Virus record (IMG/VR): IMGVR_UViG_3300020413_000040
Location: 1-32,542 of that record
DNA from: a virus
Lineage: Duplodnaviria > Caudoviricetes
Strand: one strand, 5' to 3'
DNA: 32,542 nucleotides
Under the pieces are notes generated by a model. That model searched no databases, was not told the origin of the DNA, and saw nothing but the letters and a program-made list of their open reading frames with translations. A program made the position numbers and the translations under genes. Positions 24,832-32,315 of the stretch are shown in pieces (the stretch's first letter is position 1; every line of letters begins with the position of its first letter).

Positions 24832-25080
24832 ATGTATGACTTTGAAAGGGGTGATATAGTATATATTAGAGACTTTCCATTTGGCAAACCCACCAGAATC
24901 TACGGAAAAGTTGTCGGCATTCTCCACGGAGAGTATTATAATATTCTCTTGACAAATGGACTGAATCAGGATACAATAATAGCATACCAAAGCTATCAAC
25001 TAATAAGAGAAAAGGACGTTCCTCGTGAGATCAGAGAAAAAAAGAAAAGGAAACAGGTTGACAACAAAACTTTACAGTGA
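24832..25080 (+). CDS. Small SH3/KOW-like protein
   Basis: FERGDIVYI...GKVVG. Confidence 0.7.
   Translation: MYDFERGDIVYIRDFPFGKPTRIYGKVVGILHGEYYNILLTNGLNQDTIIAYQSYQLIREKDVPREIREKKKRKQVDNKTLQ
24949..24977 (+). promoter_or_regulatory. Sigma70-type promoter inside a CDS
   Basis: TTGACA-N17-TACAAT. Confidence 0.6.
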
Positions 25081-25309
25081 TTGTCATGGTTCAACTTCTG
25101 AGTCTATATATTTTGAGGTAGACAATTTAGATACAAAAACAATAGAACAAGCAGAGAATAGTTATGAAGAAGTTTTCATCACGATTAGGAAGGTGTTAGA
25201 AGACAATGAACAATTTTGTTGTGATGACGAAAATGATAGGCTTTCACTTACTCAAAGTATCGCTGATATACTTAGACAGAGCATGCTCATTCGCAAGGAG
25301 AAAAGATGA
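25025..25309 (+). CDS. Hypothetical acidic protein (start may be TTG 25058)
   Basis: ORF coupled to the next gene by ATGA. Confidence 0.65.
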   Translation: MRSEKKRKGNRLTTKLYSDCHGSTSESIYFEVDNLDTKTIEQAENSYEEVFITIRKVLEDNEQFCCDDENDRLSLTQSIADILRQSMLIRKEKR

Positions 25310-25563
25310 CTAAGGGCGAAGCTGTCCGGTGTGTAGAAGATTATGAGCTGTTTAGTTGCGGAAACATAAACGGTACCGAGGGTTGTTACGTACATTATTC
25401 GGAATCTAACAATAAACATTTGGTATATTTTCCAGAGTGTGGGGAGTGGGCAGAACTAGAAGAGTCTCAGCTTGAAAGAATTAATAAGCCCGGGTATATC
25501 TCAAAGAAAAACAAGAGATTTGTAAAAAACATTTCCAGACTAAAGATGACACTAGTAACATGA
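25306..25563 (+). CDS. Hypothetical small protein, SH3-like
   Basis: AAGGAG RBS; MTKGEAVRC...LVYF...W.EL...LE. Confidence 0.65.
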   Translation: MTKGEAVRCVEDYELFSCGNINGTEGCYVHYSESNNKHLVYFPECGEWAELEESQLERINKPGYISKKNKRFVKNISRLKMTLVT

Positions 25564-25739
25564 TGAGTCGAGCAATCATGTCTATGGGCGCTGTGCAGAT
25601 GGGCCTGGCCATATACATGGGGTATTTTATACCAAAAGAGTATCATCATTTTTTTGCTCTCTCAGCCAGAGATTTCTTCTTGATTTCTTTTGTCGCCTTT
25701 GCCTGGGGCCTTTATGGAGTCTTGAGGGAAGACAGATGA
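25563..25739 (+). CDS. 58-aa two-TM microprotein
   Basis: TGATG and ATGA coupling at the two ends; two hydrophobic stretches; below the ORF-track cutoff. Confidence 0.6.
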   Translation: MSRAIMSMGAVQMGLAIYMGYFIPKEYHHFFALSARDFFLISFVAFAWGLYGVLREDR

Positions 25740-25918
25740 AAGCTAAGGATCTCAAGTGCAATAAGATGTACTGGTCGACTCGTCTCAATAAGATAGGGAT
25801 TTGCGAGGCATTTGCAAACTACATGGTATATATGGTTTTTATTGATAACAGAGACAATGGATGGTACCATTGCGCTGAACTAAAGGAGGTTAGTCATGAT
25901 AAGAGACAGACTGTTTGA
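25736..25918 (+). CDS. Hypothetical protein
   Basis: 60 aa; ATGA coupling. Confidence 0.6.
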   Translation: MKAKDLKCNKMYWSTRLNKIGICEAFANYMVYMVFIDNRDNGWYHCAELKEVSHDKRQTV

Positions 25919-26015
25919 TGCTTACTTGTTAGGCTCATTGGCCTTGGGTTGCGCGCTCGCAGCACCGTATGTTTTGTGCCTGATTGTAAAGGAAGAATTC
26001 CGTGCGAGAATGTAG
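25896..26015 (+). CDS. 39-aa single-TM microprotein
   Basis: Strong AAGGAGGT RBS; AYLLGSLALGCALAAPYVLCLIV. Confidence 0.55.
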   Translation: MIRDRLFDAYLLGSLALGCALAAPYVLCLIVKEEFRARM

Positions 26016-26223
26016 GTTCATTAGGTGCGGAAACAACATATATGTACCACCAGTTCAAGTTTGGTTAGAAGGTTGGACCCGCCAACGATGGCTTGAAAGG
26101 CATTTCAAAGAACCGGACACAATAAGAGTAGCCAGCCTCATGTCATGGGAGTGGCTGTCCGGAGAGCACACCGTCAAAATATTGACAGAGAAAAGTAATG
26201 AGTTCTCTGAAAAAGATTCTTGA
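26002..26223 (+). CDS. Hypothetical protein
   Basis: 73 aa; GTG start with AAGGA upstream. Confidence 0.55.
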   Translation: MRECRFIRCGNNIYVPPVQVWLEGWTRQRWLERHFKEPDTIRVASLMSWEWLSGEHTVKILTEKSNEFSEKDS

Positions 26224-26248
26224 CAATCCCACCAAAATAACCTATAAT
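26220..26248 (+). promoter_or_regulatory. Sigma70-type promoter
   Basis: TTGACA-N17-TATAAT, perfect consensus. Confidence 0.82.
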
Positions 26249-26276
26249 ATATGTATAACAAATAATCGGAGACCCC

Positions 26277-26579
26277 ATGAAAGTCTGGAACTGGATGAAC
26301 GAGCATATGTACCTCACTGTGTTTGTCTTGGCCTTTATCACAGACTTCTGGGCGAACTGGTATAGTTATGCGATAGTTCATGACTGGATAGTTCTACAGG
26401 CATTTTTGGGAATGGCTTTGCCTTTCTTGAATTTACCTGGAATTCTATTCTTCATAGACAAGAAAGATATGAAAGTTAGACTGAAACTCTGTGCGCTCTC
26501 GGCACTTGCAATGTCCTTGGGTTCTACCTTGATGTTGTTGATGATCCGAGCAGGTATTGGAGTTGGGAAGGAAATATAA
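26277..26579 (+). CDS. Membrane protein (three TM segments)
   Basis: Three hydrophobic segments; GGAG RBS. Confidence 0.75.
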   Translation: MKVWNWMNEHMYLTVFVLAFITDFWANWYSYAIVHDWIVLQAFLGMALPFLNLPGILFFIDKKDMKVRLKLCALSALAMSLGSTLMLLMIRAGIGVGKEI

Positions 26580-26758
26580 TGAGAGGCGTAGACTTTAAAG
26601 TTGGAGATATGGTTGTCAACCCCGTTGCCGAATCAACGGCCGTTGTCCTTGGTTTCGAGGATAACAAACTATTCGACTCAGTTTATTGTGTTAAAGTTAT
26701 GTACGTTGGAGACTCAAAGCCAATGTATGTTTTATCAGATAGGATTAGAAAATTATGA
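26579..26758 (+). CDS. 59-aa SH3/KOW-like protein
   Basis: MRGVDFKVGDMVVN...AVVLG; TAATG and ATGA coupling; below the ORF-track cutoff. Confidence 0.68.
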   Translation: MRGVDFKVGDMVVNPVAESTAVVLGFEDNKLFDSVYCVKVMYVGDSKPMYVLSDRIRKL

Positions 26759-27438
26759 GTGACGCATCAATACATTATCAAGACGCATTTAATCACCTAC
26801 AATATCATGCAGACCATATGAATTTGTGGGAGCAAGGTTTCGTAGAATCTTTGGAACACCAGTTCAAACAAAAAGGTAGACTTTCTCTCTCACAAGAGAG
26901 GCATCTTTTCAAGTTGACTGATAAATATAATATGGACAAGATTCGAGAAGCACAGCAATGGGTCAAGAACTATGGACCAGAACAACGAGACATCGCAATT
27001 AAGTGTGCAAATTACTATGATGGCCAGTATGTTAACTATTTCCATGATATTGTTACAAAGGTTCTGGATGACCCTGAACATCACGTCCTTACTCTTGGAG
27101 AGTATAACAAGCTGTGCAAGAACAAGTACGCTCTGAAAGTTCTAGCATCATATGATGCCCCAGAAAAATTTGCAGTGGGCGATATGGTTCAGATTCGAGC
27201 AAACAATCGTGTTGATATTGCTAATACAGATCAGAAAACCGGTGCCGTTGCTAGGGGTACACGCTCGACATGGGGCCTGACTAACAAGACTTGTATGGTC
27301 TTAGAAGTAAATGCTCTTCCAATTACCCGAGCAGCAAAGAACTCTAGGGTCTACAAGGTACTAATTATTGATGAGACTTCGCCAATTTATGTTCACGAGT
27401 CTGACCTCAAAAAGCTTCGGAGGCCAAAAAAGAAATGA
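26755..27438 (+). CDS. Hypothetical protein with C-terminal SH3/KOW-like domain
   Basis: WEQGFVESL...LSLSQ helical N-terminus; FAVGDMVQI...VHESDLKK C-terminus. Confidence 0.75.
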   Translation: MSDASIHYQDAFNHLQYHADHMNLWEQGFVESLEHQFKQKGRLSLSQERHLFKLTDKYNMDKIREAQQWVKNYGPEQRDIAIKCANYYDGQYVNYFHDIVTKVLDDPEHHVLTLGEYNKLCKNKYALKVLASYDAPEKFAVGDMVQIRANNRVDIANTDQKTGAVARGTRSTWGLTNKTCMVLEVNALPITRAAKNSRVYKVLIIDETSPIYVHESDLKKLRRPKKK

Positions 27439-27869
27439 AAGAACAAATCATTAAAGCTATTTCCTTCTTTTATCAAGGAGAGAGGCACATAATCAAAGCT
27501 GGAAAGTCAGGAAAGTTCAGGGTCCCGGTCACTGAGGTCGTCGATGGTAATATGAAAACAAGGATCAAAGGACTGACTGCTTGTGAGATACTTAAACACG
27601 ACGTCGTAAAAGGGTGTGACCCAACGCTATACTTAGATCGAGGAGAGAAACTTAGAGTCTTTCAAGGCGGAGACTCAAGCTATTTACCCGCACACATTCA
27701 GGGCCTAGCTGAGAAGCATGACGCAGCAAATAAGCCGAAGCCCAAGCCGAAAAAAAAATCAATACTTGACAAACCATTCACAAATGGTTATAATTTAACT
27801 AAAGATTGGAAACAAGAAACAATAGATATGTATGGATGTTGGCCTTATGACGAGGACTACCATGACTAA
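27435..27869 (+). CDS. Hypothetical protein
   Basis: 144 aa; ATGA coupling; KP-rich linker. Confidence 0.7.
   Translation: MKEQIIKAISFFYQGERHIIKAGKSGKFRVPVTEVVDGNMKTRIKGLTACEILKHDVVKGCDPTLYLDRGEKLRVFQGGDSSYLPAHIQGLAEKHDAANKPKPKPKKKSILDKPFTNGYNLTKDWKQETIDMYGCWPYDEDYHD
27766..27794 (+). promoter_or_regulatory. Sigma70-type promoter inside a CDS
   Basis: TTGACA-N17-TATAAT, perfect consensus. Confidence 0.75.
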
Positions 27870-28080
27870 ATATCTGACAGAGGGTGACTTGGTGTGGGTC
27901 TGTCGCCATGGTTACGAGGAGTGTACACCAAAAAGCCTCAGAAGTCATGGAATAGTGACAAAAGAGTTGTCGGCACCCAACCAGTATTGGTACGAAATTT
28001 TACAGACCACCCCTAGTGGAACCACACAAATGAAAACATTTCCCATTGAAATGCTGATAAAGATCGAAGACAATGACTGA
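27862..28080 (+). CDS. Small SH3/KOW-like protein
   Basis: LTEGDLVWV...GIVTK; start 27862 after GAGGA. Confidence 0.68.
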   Translation: MTKYLTEGDLVWVCRHGYEECTPKSLRSHGIVTKELSAPNQYWYEILQTTPSGTTQMKTFPIEMLIKIEDND

Positions 28081-28354
28081 AGTATACAATATAAGAATAG
28101 GTGATATGGTTTATAATAAACTCGATGGCCAAAACATAATTGGCCTTATCTATAAATTAACGCCAAAATACGCTTACTATGCAGTCTGCGCTAGGAGTAA
28201 GAATGACTCGGAAGGGGATCACTATATCACAAGAGATCACAAGGTCAGCAAGCAGAAATTATACGAAGCAATCAGAAAAGAACACGTAGGAATAAGTTAT
28301 GCACAAGGCATCAATCGTAGAAGAAAAATCAAAGAGAACACCGAAAGTCGGTGA
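28073..28354 (+). CDS. Small SH3/KOW-like protein
   Basis: IRIGDMVYN...IGLIYK. Confidence 0.68.
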   Translation: MTEVYNIRIGDMVYNKLDGQNIIGLIYKLTPKYAYYAVCARSKNDSEGDHYITRDHKVSKQKLYEAIRKEHVGISYAQGINRRRKIKENTESR

Positions 28355-28514
28355 CATAGTGAAATTTCACGCTGGTGTCTGTGAAATTATGGATGGGGTT
28401 GATGGAATGACCGGAATCGTTACCAAACTTTATCATGACGACTTCGATGCCTTGGTTCTACTTAATGATGGCAGACTTTTCATTGACAGAACCGAGTATT
28501 TCACGGTATTATAA
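28299..28514 (+). CDS. Small SH3/KOW-like protein
   Basis: PKVGDIVKF...TGIVTK; AGGA RBS. Confidence 0.65.
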   Translation: MHKASIVEEKSKRTPKVGDIVKFHAGVCEIMDGVDGMTGIVTKLYHDDFDALVLLNDGRLFIDRTEYFTVL

Positions 28515-28518
28515 TAAC

Positions 28519-28734
28519 ATGAGACAGAAGATAGATATAGGCGACCTTGTAGAGTATGATAAGTATCAGGCACTTGTGCTTGACCGCAAGACTATCAATC
28601 CAAACTACAACACAGAAAGGGTATTCCATCCGGATGAATACCATTGCAAGGTTCTGCTTTTGAACTCGGACAACGACAATGACTATCGTTGGGTCCGAAC
28701 TAAATGGTTGAAATTATTATCAAAATCTTCTTGA
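28519..28734 (+). CDS. Small SH3/KOW-like protein
   Basis: IDIGDLVEY...ALVLD...WVRTKWLKLL; start reassigned to ATG 28519. Confidence 0.68.
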   Translation: MRQKIDIGDLVEYDKYQALVLDRKTINPNYNTERVFHPDEYHCKVLLLNSDNDNDYRWVRTKWLKLLSKSS

Positions 28735-28759
28735 CTTTCCCCTCAAAACCTGTCATAAT
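28731..28759 (+). promoter_or_regulatory. Sigma70-type promoter (extended -10)
   Basis: TTGACT-N17-CATAAT with TG before the -10. Confidence 0.7.
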
Positions 28760-28786
28760 ATATACACAACAATGAAGGAGCGACTA

Positions 28787-29374
28787 ATGAATCCACTCGC
28801 AGATAACGTATTTCAAATGACCAACGCCGAGCTAATCGGCCTTGCCAAGAATAGATTCCTCGACTATGAAACTCAGGACAAGATTGCACTAAACCCTTAC
28901 AAGCGAGCACACATGTATCTTATTGAGAACCCTGGCCTGTGCTCGACTTCCCGAGACATCTTGTGGAGCAAGCCTGGCTACGTAAACAAGTTCGACTTGG
29001 TTTCTATGGGTCATTACAAGGACCAACCGGAAAAGTATCACGAGCTTTACGACAACTATGCAGAGAAGGCATTTGTGAGGAACGGTGGCTATCGTGTCTT
29101 TCGGGCCTTCCTTGGCGGCTATGGTTATGGTGCGGGCTACGGTGCTTTACCTGGACCTTCAGGGACTCCAACATCTATCCTTGATAGTCTTTATGATCGC
29201 GTCAAAAATGAGAAAACAAGGGGCTATGGTTATGACTATTACACCACGAGCATGGCTAGGGCACTGGCACAACATCCCAACTCTTCGACTGAAACTATTG
29301 TGAAACTTTCTTGCGCTTATCCATGCAAAGATATAAACAGAATTGCCCTTATAGAGCTGGGAAGACGTGGATAA
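28787..29374 (+). CDS. Hypothetical helical-repeat-like protein
   Basis: AAGGAG RBS before 28787; recurring IALNP / LIENP / LAQHP units and a GY-rich patch. Confidence 0.7.
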   Translation: MNPLADNVFQMTNAELIGLAKNRFLDYETQDKIALNPYKRAHMYLIENPGLCSTSRDILWSKPGYVNKFDLVSMGHYKDQPEKYHELYDNYAEKAFVRNGGYRVFRAFLGGYGYGAGYGALPGPSGTPTSILDSLYDRVKNEKTRGYGYDYYTTSMARALAQHPNSSTETIVKLSCAYPCKDINRIALIELGRRG

Positions 29375-29390
29375 AAAGTTAATTTTTATA

Positions 29391-29419
29391 TTGACAAAAC
29401 CTACCCTTTATGAGATACT
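29391..29419 (+). promoter_or_regulatory. Sigma70-type promoter (extended -10)
   Basis: TTGACA-N17-GATACT with TG before the -10. Confidence 0.65.
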
Positions 29420-29467
29420 AGTTAAAGATAGAGAAAGAAATAACGCCAACAACACAAGGAGATCATC

Positions 29468-30517
29468 ATGGCCGTTGACTTTGCTACATTTTCCCAAATC
29501 GTAAACCACGTAACCGCTGTACGTAAGCCAGTCTTACTGCGAGGTCGTCACGGCATTGGCAAGTCCACTGTTGTGTACCAGTACGCTGCACAACAAGACA
29601 TGGAAGTTGTCGAGCGTCGTGCATCACAGATGACGGAAGGTGACTTGGTTGGTCTACCTACTATCGATGCAGGCTCGACCCGGTTCAATCCACCTGATTG
29701 GTTCAAGGCTGCATGTGATCGTCCTGTTGTGTTGTTTCTCGACGAAGTTGACCGAGCCACCTTGGAAGTCCGCCAAGGCATCTTCGAGCTTACTGATTCA
29801 CGTAAGCTGAACGGACACAAACTCCACGATGATACGCTCATCTTCGCCGCAGTCAACGGTGGAGAACATGGAGCACAGTATCAAGTTGGCGAGATGGACC
29901 CGGCTGAATTGGATCGCTGGACTGTATTTGACATCGAGCCATCTGTGGAGGACTGGTTGGCATGGGCTAATGATTCTGAAATCTCTCAGGAGATTTTCAA
30001 TTTCATCAATCAGAATCGTGCCCACCTTGAGCACACAGACGACTTCGAGCCGAACAAGGTTTATCCTTCTCGTCGGTCTTGGGAACGTCTCGACCAGTGT
30101 CTGGCACAGGCTGGTCTGCTGGAGGATGCCAGTCCTGCACTTTTCAATCTGACTTCTGCGTTTGTTGGCTTTGAGGCTGCTGTAGCTTTCAACGACTTTA
30201 TCCAGAACTACGACCGCCAAGTCTCGACTGATGACATTCTTGTCAAGGGTGACTTCTCCAAGCTAGCTGACTTCGGTATCAATGATCACACTGCTATCAT
30301 CGACAAGTTCGAGGCCGAAGAGACATTCAAGGATGAGTTACCACAAGATCAGGTTGACAACTTGGCCCGCTATTTCATCATGCTTCCCTCTGAAGTTGCA
30401 ATGAAACTCTGGACTGTAATGGGCAAGGGCGAAGTCAACAACACTGTCAAGCTGCACAAGACTGATGTCGATGGTGAGTCTGTCAGTAAGCACTTCGTCA
30501 AGATGATTAATGGATAG
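29468..30517 (+). CDS. MoxR-like AAA+ ATPase
   Basis: Walker A GRHGIGKS, GDLVGLP, Walker B VLFLDE, sensor AAVN, DPAELDRW Arg finger, PSRRSW. Confidence 0.92.
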   Translation: MAVDFATFSQIVNHVTAVRKPVLLRGRHGIGKSTVVYQYAAQQDMEVVERRASQMTEGDLVGLPTIDAGSTRFNPPDWFKAACDRPVVLFLDEVDRATLEVRQGIFELTDSRKLNGHKLHDDTLIFAAVNGGEHGAQYQVGEMDPAELDRWTVFDIEPSVEDWLAWANDSEISQEIFNFINQNRAHLEHTDDFEPNKVYPSRRSWERLDQCLAQAGLLEDASPALFNLTSAFVGFEAAVAFNDFIQNYDRQVSTDDILVKGDFSKLADFGINDHTAIIDKFEAEETFKDELPQDQVDNLARYFIMLPSEVAMKLWTVMGKGEVNNTVKLHKTDVDGESVSKHFVKMING

Positions 30518-30529
30518 GACAAATAGTTC

Positions 30530-30559
30530 TTGACAATTAAGTTAGTTTTGTGTTATTAT
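30530..30559 (+). promoter_or_regulatory. Sigma70-type promoter
   Basis: TTGACA-N18-TATTAT with TG before the -10. Confidence 0.65.
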
Positions 30560-30586
30560 AATATATAAACAATTACGGAGGCTGTT

Positions 30587-31831
30587 ATGTCCGACAAAGA
30601 ATTTGACCTCAATACTCACACTGCTCGTCTTCTACTTGACGAGCCGTTCTTTGCAGCTATCTCTCGTCGTATCGACAAGCGTGCATCTAACGCTATCCCC
30701 ACAGCCGGTGTCATGGTTAACCCTGAGACAGCCCAGTTCGAGATGCTGTACAACCCCAAATTCTTTGAGGACTTAACAGACCTCAATCGTACTGACATTC
30801 TCAAGCACGAGTTCTATCACATTCTATTCGAGCATGTGACTGGTCGTATGCCTGAGAATGTAAACATGGAAACTTCAGAAGGTCGCCGTAACATGAAACT
30901 TTGGAACATTGCAACTGACCTTGCAATCAACTCCCACTTGCAACACCTACCAGAAGGCGGGCTCATTCCTGGCGAGGGTAAGTTTGAAGGCTTGCCCAAA
31001 GGTGAGTCAGCAGAGTGGTATCTTGCCAACATGCCAGATTTCGAGGAGGAAGACCAAGGTCAAAAGGGTGACGGGGCAGACCAGGATGGTGAAGGCGGTC
31101 AAGGTGGAGAGCAAGGCAACAACTCCGGCAACGGTGATGGCATGCCTGATTCGCTTGACGACCACTCAGGCTGGGGCCAGTGCTCTAACGAGGTTAAGGA
31201 AATGGCCAAGGAGCGTCTCAAAGAAACTGTACGCAAAGCAGCAGAAGAAGCAAGCAAGTCAAATGGTTGGGGCTCAGTGTCTAGTTCAGTTCGTAAGGAT
31301 GTGATGAAGATGTTGGAAACCAAGGTAGACTGGCGCAAGGTTCTTCGATTCTTTGTCAAGTCTTCGCAACGAGCAGACAGGTCTAGCTCTATCAAGCGAA
31401 TCAACCGCCGTTATGCTTACATCCACCCAGGTCGCAAGGCAAACCGGGTTGCCAAACTTGCAATCTCGATTGACCAGTCAGGTTCTGTGAGTGACGAGAT
31501 GCTTTCTCTTTTCTTTGCGGAGTTGAACAAGCTGTCAGCTATTGCAGAGTTTGTCGTGATCCCTTTTGACACACAGGTTGATGAAGACCTTGTGTACATT
31601 TGGAAGAAGAACAAGAACCAGAAGCCAGAGCGTGTGATGATGGGTGGTACCGACTTCAACGCTCCTACAGATTATGTTAACAAAGGCGGATTCGATGGTC
31701 ACATTGTCTTGACTGATATGTGTGCACCAAAACCACGGCCAAGCAAATGCCAGCGCATGTGGATGACTACGCCTGAGTATGCAAAGGCAAACTACTTTGC
31801 TACTAACGAAAGAGTTGTTATTGTTGAGTGA
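30587..31831 (+). CDS. DUF2201-type protein: HExxH metallopeptidase-like N-domain, acidic Gly-rich linker and vWA domain
   Basis: IPTAGV, LKHEFYH, WNIATDLAINS, LDDHSGW, IDQSGSV (MIDAS), GGTDF, IVLTD; the usual partner of the upstream AAA+. Confidence 0.9.
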   Translation: MSDKEFDLNTHTARLLLDEPFFAAISRRIDKRASNAIPTAGVMVNPETAQFEMLYNPKFFEDLTDLNRTDILKHEFYHILFEHVTGRMPENVNMETSEGRRNMKLWNIATDLAINSHLQHLPEGGLIPGEGKFEGLPKGESAEWYLANMPDFEEEDQGQKGDGADQDGEGGQGGEQGNNSGNGDGMPDSLDDHSGWGQCSNEVKEMAKERLKETVRKAAEEASKSNGWGSVSSSVRKDVMKMLETKVDWRKVLRFFVKSSQRADRSSSIKRINRRYAYIHPGRKANRVAKLAISIDQSGSVSDEMLSLFFAELNKLSAIAEFVVIPFDTQVDEDLVYIWKKNKNQKPERVMMGGTDFNAPTDYVNKGGFDGHIVLTDMCAPKPRPSKCQRMWMTTPEYAKANYFATNERVVIVE

Positions 31832-31870
31832 GGCTCAAGGGCACCATAGCCTTTAAGATACTCCGGCAAT

Positions 31871-32065
31871 AACTTGTTTGGTCAGTCAATGCGCGGCATG
31901 TCCCGCGTGGCCAAACAGGTTCTTCAGTGCTGAGACATGAAACAAGGAAAACGTGCGTTTGCCTACAACCGCACATTCCCATGAGGGGTAAACAACTTAG
32001 ACGTAGGCTGGCTGTTCGGGTTAATGAAGCGAGAAAGTGATTAACCCACTGAAGAACCACTTTTT
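31871..32065 (+). ncRNA. Candidate structured ncRNA (multi-helix, pseudoknot), family unknown
   Basis: Helices 31871-31884/31908-31921, 31918-31929/32047-32058 (12 bp perfect), 32018-32025/32040-32047 and 31953-31957/31970-31974; loop GCCTAC (31961-31966) is complementary to GTAGGC (32003-32008). Confidence 0.6.
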
Positions 32066-32081
32066 CCAACATAGTTATAGT

Positions 32082-32312
32082 ATGGAGCCAAGATTTCAAC
32101 CAGGAGACTTGGTAGCTTGCTACCTAACCAACACAGAGATAGTCAGTGGCCTGTTCCAATGGGGTATGGTACTGGAAGTGAGTGAAACATTGCAAGACAT
32201 TCTTGTACTAGATAACGGTGGCTATACTAACTGGTATCCAGCAACCCGGTGGACACAATTAGATGAAGTTCCCAAAGAAAAAGTTCTTGACATTTACGGT
32301 CTTTTAGCGTAA
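32082..32312 (+). CDS. Small SH3/KOW-like protein
   Basis: MEPRFQPGDLVAC...WGMVLEV; ATG 32082 directly after CATAGTTATA (late-motif variant). Confidence 0.68.
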   Translation: MEPRFQPGDLVACYLTNTEIVSGLFQWGMVLEVSETLQDILVLDNGGYTNWYPATRWTQLDEVPKEKVLDIYGLLA

Positions 32313-32315
32313 AAT
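32287..32315 (+). promoter_or_regulatory. Sigma70-type promoter
   Basis: TTGACA-N17-TAAAAT. Confidence 0.65.

Follow-up and report, generated by a model that had tools for sequence, protein, structure and literature searches.

A real, uncatalogued family of structured RNAs occurs in a clade of uncultured phages, and its double-pseudoknot fold is well supported by comparison of homologous sequences. One copy lies in a non-coding gap behind an AAA+/vWA gene pair in the window, by which is meant the whole stretch of 32,542 nucleotides analysed (IMG/VR record IMGVR_UViG_3300020413_000040). The initial annotation had proposed a novel pseudoknotted RNA on the plus strand, which is supported both by covariation and by the lack of Rfam matches. 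It had placed this RNA at 31871-32065; the core is instead 31918-32058. The window copy is built of the following elements.

31871..31921, + strand: optional 5' hairpin, its 5' side bearing a conserved bulge (31880-31885), present only in part of subfamily A
31918..31929, + strand: 5' strand of P1, the long-range closing helix (7-19 bp across the family), with two-sided change at 10/10 pairs
31930..31952, + strand: A/U-rich single-stranded linker of unconserved sequence
31953..31974, + strand: P2 stem (31953-31957/31970-31974), 3-nt L1, 5' strand of P3 (31961-31966) and 3-nt L2; covarying
31975..32002, + strand: pseudoknot loop 3, with a small variable hairpin P4 (31977-31988) and a purine-rich 3' end
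32003..32008, + strand: 3' strand of pseudoknot P3, with two-sided change at 6/6 pairs
32009..32012, + strand: conserved strand of 4 nt that reads U, purine, G, variable base, its U and G being invariant
32018..32047, + strand: P5 hairpin, with T-loop-like loop positions 32028-32032 (predicted T-loop fold)
32047..32058, + strand: 3' strand of P1; covarying
32061..32065, + strand: T-tract 3' of P1

Fold of the window copy

The 14-pair hairpin with its two G-U pairs (31871-31884/31908-31921), the perfect 12-bp helix (31918-31929/32047-32058), the 6-bp loop pairing (31961-31966/32003-32008), the 8-bp hairpin (32018-32025/32040-32047) and the T-tract (32061-32065) were all found in the sequence as first described, and base 32047 is common to the 8-bp hairpin and the 12-bp helix, so that these form either 12+7 or 11+8 pairs. 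From the nested arm drawn within the long helix the 5-bp stem 31953-31957/31970-31974 was retained, while its three outer pieces, which joined the linker 31930-31952 with 31976-32000, had to be given up: pairing of the linker with loop 3 is no better than that of a shuffled linker (mean run 4.18 vs 4.39, with 15/44 copies above; 4 vs 3.7 in the window). Instead of this outer arm, the window carries the hairpin 31977-31988 where the homologues have a variable hairpin. Against 200 shuffles the predicted fold gave a z of -2.1 with 5/200 as good, which is better than chance, but only modestly; the core alone gave -2.6 (6/200 as good), and the minus strand -1.7.

A switch had been suspected from the competition of the 5' hairpin and the long helix for the same bases. 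This was not borne out, as the predicted fold retains 15 pairs of the 5' hairpin alongside the long helix, and in homologues the two abut without overlap, the hairpin being absent from many copies. The overlap is confined to the window and costs four outer pairs only. Wherever the optional hairpin occurs in subfamily A, its 5-6-nt bulge (window 31880-31885) is nearly invariant.

Common plan and covariation

The copies share a plan that reads, 5' to 3', P1, A/U-rich linker, P2 (5-6 bp), L1 (3 nt), P3 (6 bp), L2 (3 nt), loop 3, the 4-nt strand, P5 and the 3' strand of P1, with an optional hairpin in loop 3. The element is 120-201 nt long and its linker 14-29 nt (median 18, 82% A/U; 44 copies each), and loop 3 ranges from 12 to 82 nt (48 copies). 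The window copy combines the subfamily A pseudoknot with the loop type of the copies found beside tmRNA genes.

The long helix, the P2 stem, the pseudoknot and the 3' hairpin covary across homologues. In an alignment of subfamily A made by MAFFT, blind to structure, 93.1% of 407 cells are paired and 16/28 pairs changed on both sides; in the corresponding alignment of subfamilies B and C, 98.3% of 240 cells are paired, and 6/6 pseudoknot pairs changed on both sides. For both alignments 0/500 shuffles reach the observed pairing, and slid controls give 27-43%. Full pairing of P2 and P3 in the 54-row set described below is circular for the 48 rows selected by descriptor and is not used as proof. 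An apparent base triple of the first pseudoknot pair with the purine two bases on (52 vs 2 rows) was dropped, as later copies do not covary there.

Searches and size of the family

Among 80 loci fetched by the vWA protein, 15 (L002-L013, L016, L018, L019) have a related RNA directly behind the vWA gene. A pattern for the RNA only found 41 metagenome loci and 1 contig of a genome collection, and models R1-R3 with looser patterns extended the search to divergent subfamilies. Matches of the loose patterns were mostly chance and were filtered by a family descriptor, which finds 48 distinct copies in 3.14 Mb vs 0 in 1.58 Mb of shuffled sequence; L082, with the P2/P3 motif alone within other sequence, was likewise dropped as chance. 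Six copies added by hand complete the 54-row set, and about 19 further copies, found through the models or by eye and assessed by eye, bring the family to about 70 variants, all in one clade. Weak model matches (e.g. L158, L159, L374, L375, L383-L387, L439, L440) are excluded from the counts; L141 and L180 are left out of the T-tract count and, with L191 and L211, out of the length and linker counts (P1 miscalled).

The exact window motif gave 0 matches in viral contigs, the short-gap pattern for window-like copies also gave 0, and blastn against cultured phages returned chance pieces only. With the subfamily A pattern, the only one run on host chromosomes, 1 contig was found among 185,579 genomes, its local sequence being that of phage locus L006. 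This contig (L152) belongs to a Legionellales-labelled bin, matches L006 around both the RNA and the vWA gene, and probably represents phage DNA that was binned together with the genome. Near-complete relatives hold a convincing copy in 11/18 cases and none in 7/18, so the RNA is either dispensable or in these seven too diverged to find. At least six genomes (G004, G015, G024, G033, G034, G035) carry two copies.

A second pseudoknot and a T-loop-like corner

A second pseudoknot of 2 bp is predicted between the 4-nt strand and the loop of P5 (window 32011-32030 and 32012-32029). Base 4 of the strand and loop position 2, a pair imposed by no search, are C-G in 40, U-A in 11, U-G in 3 and C-A in 0 of 54 rows. 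Strict strand-to-loop pairs occur in 46/49 unique rows vs 30.3 after shuffling (maximum 40 in 20,000), a comparison that ignores kinship. Furthermore, this pair is G-C in L361, L363 and L364, copies found by a model without it.

The invariant G of the strand stands opposite a pyrimidine at loop position 3, followed by a purine at position 4 and an invariant A at position 5. This T-loop/elbow pattern, namely position 3 with an incoming G, purine 4 and A 5, is present in 54/54 rows, a count that is partly circular because the search patterns required the pyrimidine at position 3 and the facing G; the later copies retain it by eye. In the tRNA elbow, position 3 of the T-loop pairs with G19 of the D-loop, and G18 inserts between positions 4 and 5 (PMC4810234, in excerpt). 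By analogy, the P5 loop is predicted to dock on the strand that holds the invariant G in the manner of T-loop on D-loop, with the second purine of the family strand placed, as in tRNA, to insert in the loop. The reverse-Hoogsteen U-A pair of positions 1 and 5 is not found, position 1 being G in 47, A in 6 and U in 1 of 54 rows, and a non-canonical substitute for this closing pair is possible. Two further departures from tRNA are the pair between strand base 4 and loop position 2, for which tRNA offers no equivalent, and the combined length of P1 and P5, which exceeds the 12 bp of the acceptor/T arm and varies more. T-loops occur widely as structural clamps, so tRNA mimicry need not be implied.

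Genomic contexts

The window copy and its neighbours are arranged as follows.

29468-30517: AAA ATPase gene, upstream of the vWA gene and the gap
30530..30559, + strand: sigma70-type promoter match (11/12, extended -10) ahead of the vWA gene
30587..31831, + strand: DUF2201 metallopeptidase-like/vWA-like gene, with its stop 87 nt 5' of the RNA core
32082..32312, + strand: 76-aa ORF without a Pfam match, downstream of the RNA

The RNA is likely, judged by the promoter match at 30530..30559, to be carried on a transcript that starts there. At 32069-32084, 3-6 nt 5' of the start codon of the downstream ORF and with no ribosome-binding site between, lies an A/T-rich motif that also precedes homologues of this ORF in relatives (L002-L006); it is possibly a phage promoter that gives a leaderless mRNA.

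The vWA gene ends 44-151 nt 5' of the pseudoknot in 36/42 loci found by the RNA-only pattern, the other 6 having too little upstream sequence, and two other subtypes (L027, L065) also follow a vWA gene. In a quick tree, however, the vWA genes before subfamily A fall in one clade (15/20 rows), and the link is therefore one of synteny. Subfamilies B and C lie behind several unrelated genes, on the sense strand and in the early region, so that the tie of the RNA to the AAA+/vWA pair, as first perceived, is confined to one subclade. Within the vWA clade the RNA is cleanly absent at L015 5180-5260 and L031 5260-5300, where the vWA gene directly precedes the homologue of the downstream ORF.

Genes up- and downstream vary between subfamilies and always share the strand of the RNA, and copies almost always begin about 0-150 nt past a stop codon. 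A T-tract (>=5 T in 8 nt) follows P1 in 24/46 copies vs a background of 7%; a terminator scan did not call the window site. Sigma70-type promoters follow the element in 11/46 copies and precede it in 2/46. At L311, such a match has its predicted start at the first base of P1, with a long T-tract after P1, and at L240/L302 one lies 58 nt upstream. Many copies lead straight to a ribosome-binding site and an ORF. A hydrophobic ORF of about 30 aa begins a few bases from the 3' strand of P1 in L007, L009-L013 and L019, and in L013 and L019 its likely ribosome-binding site falls within P1.

Relatives carry a one-piece tmRNA in 30/37 cases (e.g. L367, L370, L379, L380, L381, L382), and in at least 13 of these 30 loci, a third of which were read fully, a paralogue of the RNA lies within 1.5 kb upstream of it. 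Five of these tmRNA-side copies are found by the descriptor (0 antisense and 0 shuffled matches), the other eight by eye or with model R3, whose training set included several of them. Five copies stand about 7-25 nt from the 5' end of the tmRNA, with no promoter match seen between. In L388-L417, inspected by eye, a small gene that looks like one for a Fis-type helix-turn-helix protein recurs about 0.1-1 kb before the tmRNA, and behind it there often come the RNA paralogue, a thioredoxin-like ORF and a conserved short ORF. In the tmRNA-side copy L393 (G035) a sigma70-type promoter match, seen by eye, overlaps the 5' strand of P1, and transcription from it would give a form of the RNA without P1.

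RNA libraries

From 17 listed runs, 8 were examined, all as contigs, and 7 of these are RNA runs from sister strains. A contig of the RNA libraries touches 31918-32058 in 6/7 of them. These contigs speak neither for nor against a discrete RNA: over the element their depth is comparable to that over the vWA gene, and joints in the element and shared or piled-up ends are absent, in material that gives neither ends nor strand and holds no silent control stretch for comparison. Pieces of the element show fewer differences (1-6 per 141-243 nt) than most vWA pieces (up to 34 per 445 nt), the runs having been picked by shared words. In runs X6 and X7, the sister-strain contigs diverge exactly at the vWA stop codon (window 31832 onward); judged from these contigs, the spacer 5' of the RNA is exchanged and the core kept.

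Comparison with catalogued RNAs

Rfam 15 gave nothing for the window at the gathering score and, up to an E of 10, only a chance microRNA match; it gave no family match for the loci of subfamily A, of B/C or of the tmRNA side, so that the novelty first claimed is supported, with respect to Rfam, for every subfamily tested. On the tmRNA-side loci an Rfam match to permuted tmRNA stems from the adjoining tmRNA, the element aligning as an insert. ARAGORN made no call on the window. No description of the RNA was found in the literature; supplements 3-6 of PMC10690425, as distinct from its alignments and drawings, contain none of the motifs tried, and the family may be one of the unnamed candidates in that paper, which number more than ten thousand.

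Bacterial and phage Y RNAs of the YrlA type resemble the family in their helix-closed 5' and 3' ends and in being found in phages (PMC4201824, in excerpt). With tRNA-elbow mimics, those of YrlA type and TYMV included, the family shares a T-loop-like loop whose predicted docking partner is a strand containing G, and the tRNA-like structure of TYMV likewise pairs its elbow with a pseudoknot (parts of PMC4810234). Such mimics differ in that the family has neither a canonical T-arm sequence nor a conserved acceptor end and carries its pseudoknot in the other arm. A Y RNA, which would have the Ro60/TROVE gene (PF05731) within about 4 kb, was rejected, as that gene was found in 0/5 complete genomes (control positive in 2/14). 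Y RNAs of the YrlA type also carry D and T arms like those of tRNA, which tRNA enzymes modify and cut; of these the family shows the T-loop-like pattern only. Species 1 and 2 RNAs of T4 (rnaC, rnaD) are similar as stable phage RNAs of 120-140 nt that have no known function and lie beside translation RNAs; homology was rejected, models R1 and R3 giving no match over either gene with filters off and the predicted folds being different.

Ribozyme classes were compared by definitions in PMC10085705, PMC11300833, PMC10879173 and PMC6765202, each taken from part of the paper. Pistol and pseudoknot hammerhead ribozymes, as parts of PMC11300833 describe them, likewise have a 6-bp pseudoknot helix between a 5-bp stem and another helix, an A-rich strand, and conserved purines just after the pseudoknot. 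The family differs in lacking a substrate helix and the hammerhead blocks, in docking a loop on the post-pseudoknot strand, and in its long closing helix. Hammerheads are defined by the conserved core blocks C, G and S beside stems I-III (PMC10085705, in excerpt); these were not seen by eye beside the helices, no Rfam match was found, and the class, pseudoknot and permuted forms included, was rejected. So was pistol, whose helix P2 uses the 3' scissile strand beside the pseudoknot: in the family, loop 3 can shrink to 12 helix-free nt, and the 3' end is taken up by pairing to the 5' end. In gut phages, theta (HDV-like) ribozymes are also small double-pseudoknot RNAs beside translation RNAs, whereas their helix order is different and they lie at tRNA 3' trailers, the family lying upstream of tmRNA (PMC10879173, in the sections on theta). 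Ribozymes of the HDV kind have a nested double pseudoknot with an invariant catalytic C in J4/2, and no C is invariant among 57 anchored columns of the family. This and a helix order unlike that of HDV excluded the HDV/theta class, and a topology unlike that of RNase P, with no Rfam match, excluded RNase P. A template for a reverse transcriptase was rejected as well, PF00078 being found in 0/5 complete genomes (control positive in 3/14, for one family). The raiA motif, GOLLD and ROOL are comparable in being covarying multi-pseudoknot RNAs whose biochemical function is not known and which appear to be stand-alone genes (for raiA, parts of PMC10861870). The family is smaller than these, has no Rfam match, is seen in one phage clade only, and has about 6-8 invariant bases vs 51 in raiA (same source, in part); raiA itself was rejected as an identity.

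Possible functions

The reading preferred here, tentatively and at a little under even chance, is a phage RNA that is stable, acts in trans and has an elbow-like corner; about half of that chance falls to a corner that works as a tRNA mimic. Among the ribozyme-like, decoy and regulatory roles first guessed at, a decoy or other trans-acting RNA fits the contexts best, and cis-regulation of the next gene fits them worst. The RNA would be made from host-type (sigma70) promoters, either from one of its own or at the end or inside of a longer transcript, and excised at the A/U-rich flanks of P1, which may shield both ends. P5 could stack on P1 and P3 on P2, giving two arms that meet at the corner, and the linker, never shorter than 14 nt, would tether the P1/P5 junction to the distal end of P2. 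More speculatively, the elbow shape may be presented, alongside the phage tmRNA and tRNAs, to a host reader of tRNA elbows, which might be a protein of translation, of tRNA processing or of anti-phage tRNA cutting. Because the family has no anticodon arm and no conserved acceptor end, it would act as a shape decoy or modulator and not as an adaptor. The long, variable P1, the A/U-rich flanks, the changing neighbours, the stand-alone copy and the position before tmRNA all argue for a stable RNA. Against a free RNA stands the finding that a match to an own promoter is present in only 2/46 copies, and that most copies come right after a stop codon like a 3'-UTR element.

That latter position is what would be expected of a cis-acting 3'-end element, which would cap the upstream message, terminate through P1 and the T-tract, or block exonucleases, and so stabilise or delimit early mRNAs. 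The T-tract excess (24/46 vs 7%) and the sigma70-type promoter next in 11/46 copies agree with it, and H-type pseudoknots serve elsewhere as nuclease roadblocks. It is nonetheless rather unlikely: 22/46 copies have no T-tract, many lead into a ribosome-binding site and ORF, terminating copies directly before tmRNA with no promoter match between would silence it, L311 has no mRNA between promoter and RNA, and a terminator has no need of an invariant tertiary core. L311 bears equally on a new small self-cleaving or trans-cleaving ribozyme that cuts polycistronic transcripts, for instance to free tmRNA precursors, since a self-cleaver between promoter and T-tract would have nothing to process. 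The compact double pseudoknot with few invariant purines and freely variable helices, found intergenically on the sense strand and sometimes in two copies, is as expected of a ribozyme and matches published criteria for ribozyme candidates (PMC10085705, in excerpt); the 6-bp pseudoknot, stacked between two helices and lined by an A-rich strand in the minor groove, is reminiscent of pistol and the pseudoknot hammerhead (parts of PMC11300833), and phage theta ribozymes adjoin tRNAs (PMC10879173, in excerpt). The family, however, offers no equivalent of the scissile-helix strand of pistol or hammerhead, its loop 3 can be 12 nt and helix-free, its 3' end pairs with its 5' end, and hammerhead blocks are not seen beside its helices. 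Moreover, RNase P normally makes tmRNA 5' ends, and the RNA contigs show neither joints nor shared ends, a weak point; cleavage is, on balance, rather unlikely as well.

Far less probable is a riboswitch or conformational switch controlling the next gene or tmRNA. The conserved core is pocket-like, some copies of subfamily A have the 3' strand of P1 abutting or overlapping the ribosome-binding site that follows, and P1 with a T-tract before tmRNA could be an attenuator, yet downstream genes differ and often have their own promoter, no alternative pairing is conserved, the overlap of 5' hairpin and P1 is peculiar to the window, and the hairpin is missing from most subfamilies. Highly improbable, too, is an RNA subunit of an AAA+/vWA ribonucleoprotein: the vWA gene ends 44-151 nt upstream in 36/42 loci and the subtypes of L027 and L065 also follow one, but this pattern is specific to subfamily A and one vWA clade (15/20 rows of the quick tree), 57/74 vWA genes are not labelled as followed by the RNA, and the other subfamilies lie behind unrelated genes. 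A group I intron reduced to its P3-P7-P8-P9 core, with P4-P6 lost, is scarcely credible, even though the helix order, pseudoknot bases and preceding strand of subfamily A resemble the group I P7 and J8/7 consensus. This candidate was largely refuted, as 5/6 pseudoknot pairs are free to vary across subfamilies, J8/7-like bases are not kept, the first pseudoknot pair can be A-U or a G-A mismatch whose apparent triple partner does not covary in later copies, and there is no Rfam group I match, no P4-P6 region and no splice joint in the RNA contigs.

Significance

New ribozymes, riboswitches and RNA decoys have come from compact folds that combine an invariant core with two covarying pseudoknots. 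It is possible, if on the doubtful side, that the family is a new functional class of phage RNA, either a tRNA-elbow decoy, expressed together with tmRNA, against host proteins that read tRNA or cut it in defence, or a ribozyme with an active site of its own on a pistol-like scaffold. An elbow-shaped decoy would bear on the reason for the tRNAs, tmRNA and functionally unassigned stable RNAs of large phages, and a cleaving RNA would be a new ribozyme class; either one, if proved, would be categorically new. Orphan structured phage RNAs are known as a kind, while the family and its fold have no match among the RNAs catalogued in Rfam. The small size (120-200 nt), the stand-alone copies with predicted ends (L311) and the divergent subfamilies make tests of cleavage, probing and structure cheap.

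The phage clade and its hosts

The virus record of the window is 18% complete and belongs to a clade of uncultured phages of about 190 kb whose genes include a DnaE polymerase, GroEL, a ClpP-like protease, an IMPDH-family protein and UvdE. No close cultured relative of the clade was found, the best identities in two comparisons being about 30% and about 26%. The region of the gap is enriched in sigma70-type promoters (32 matches vs 15.8 expected). At 24949-32315 the window has at least seven near-consensus sigma70 promoters on the + strand amid a train of small ORFs, an arrangement typical of an early or host-takeover region. The window gene at 607-2661 encodes Cu-binding_MopE repeats, and the tmRNA tag peptides of several relatives resemble the Myxococcus-type tag; together these repeats and tags hint at marine Myxococcota-like hosts.
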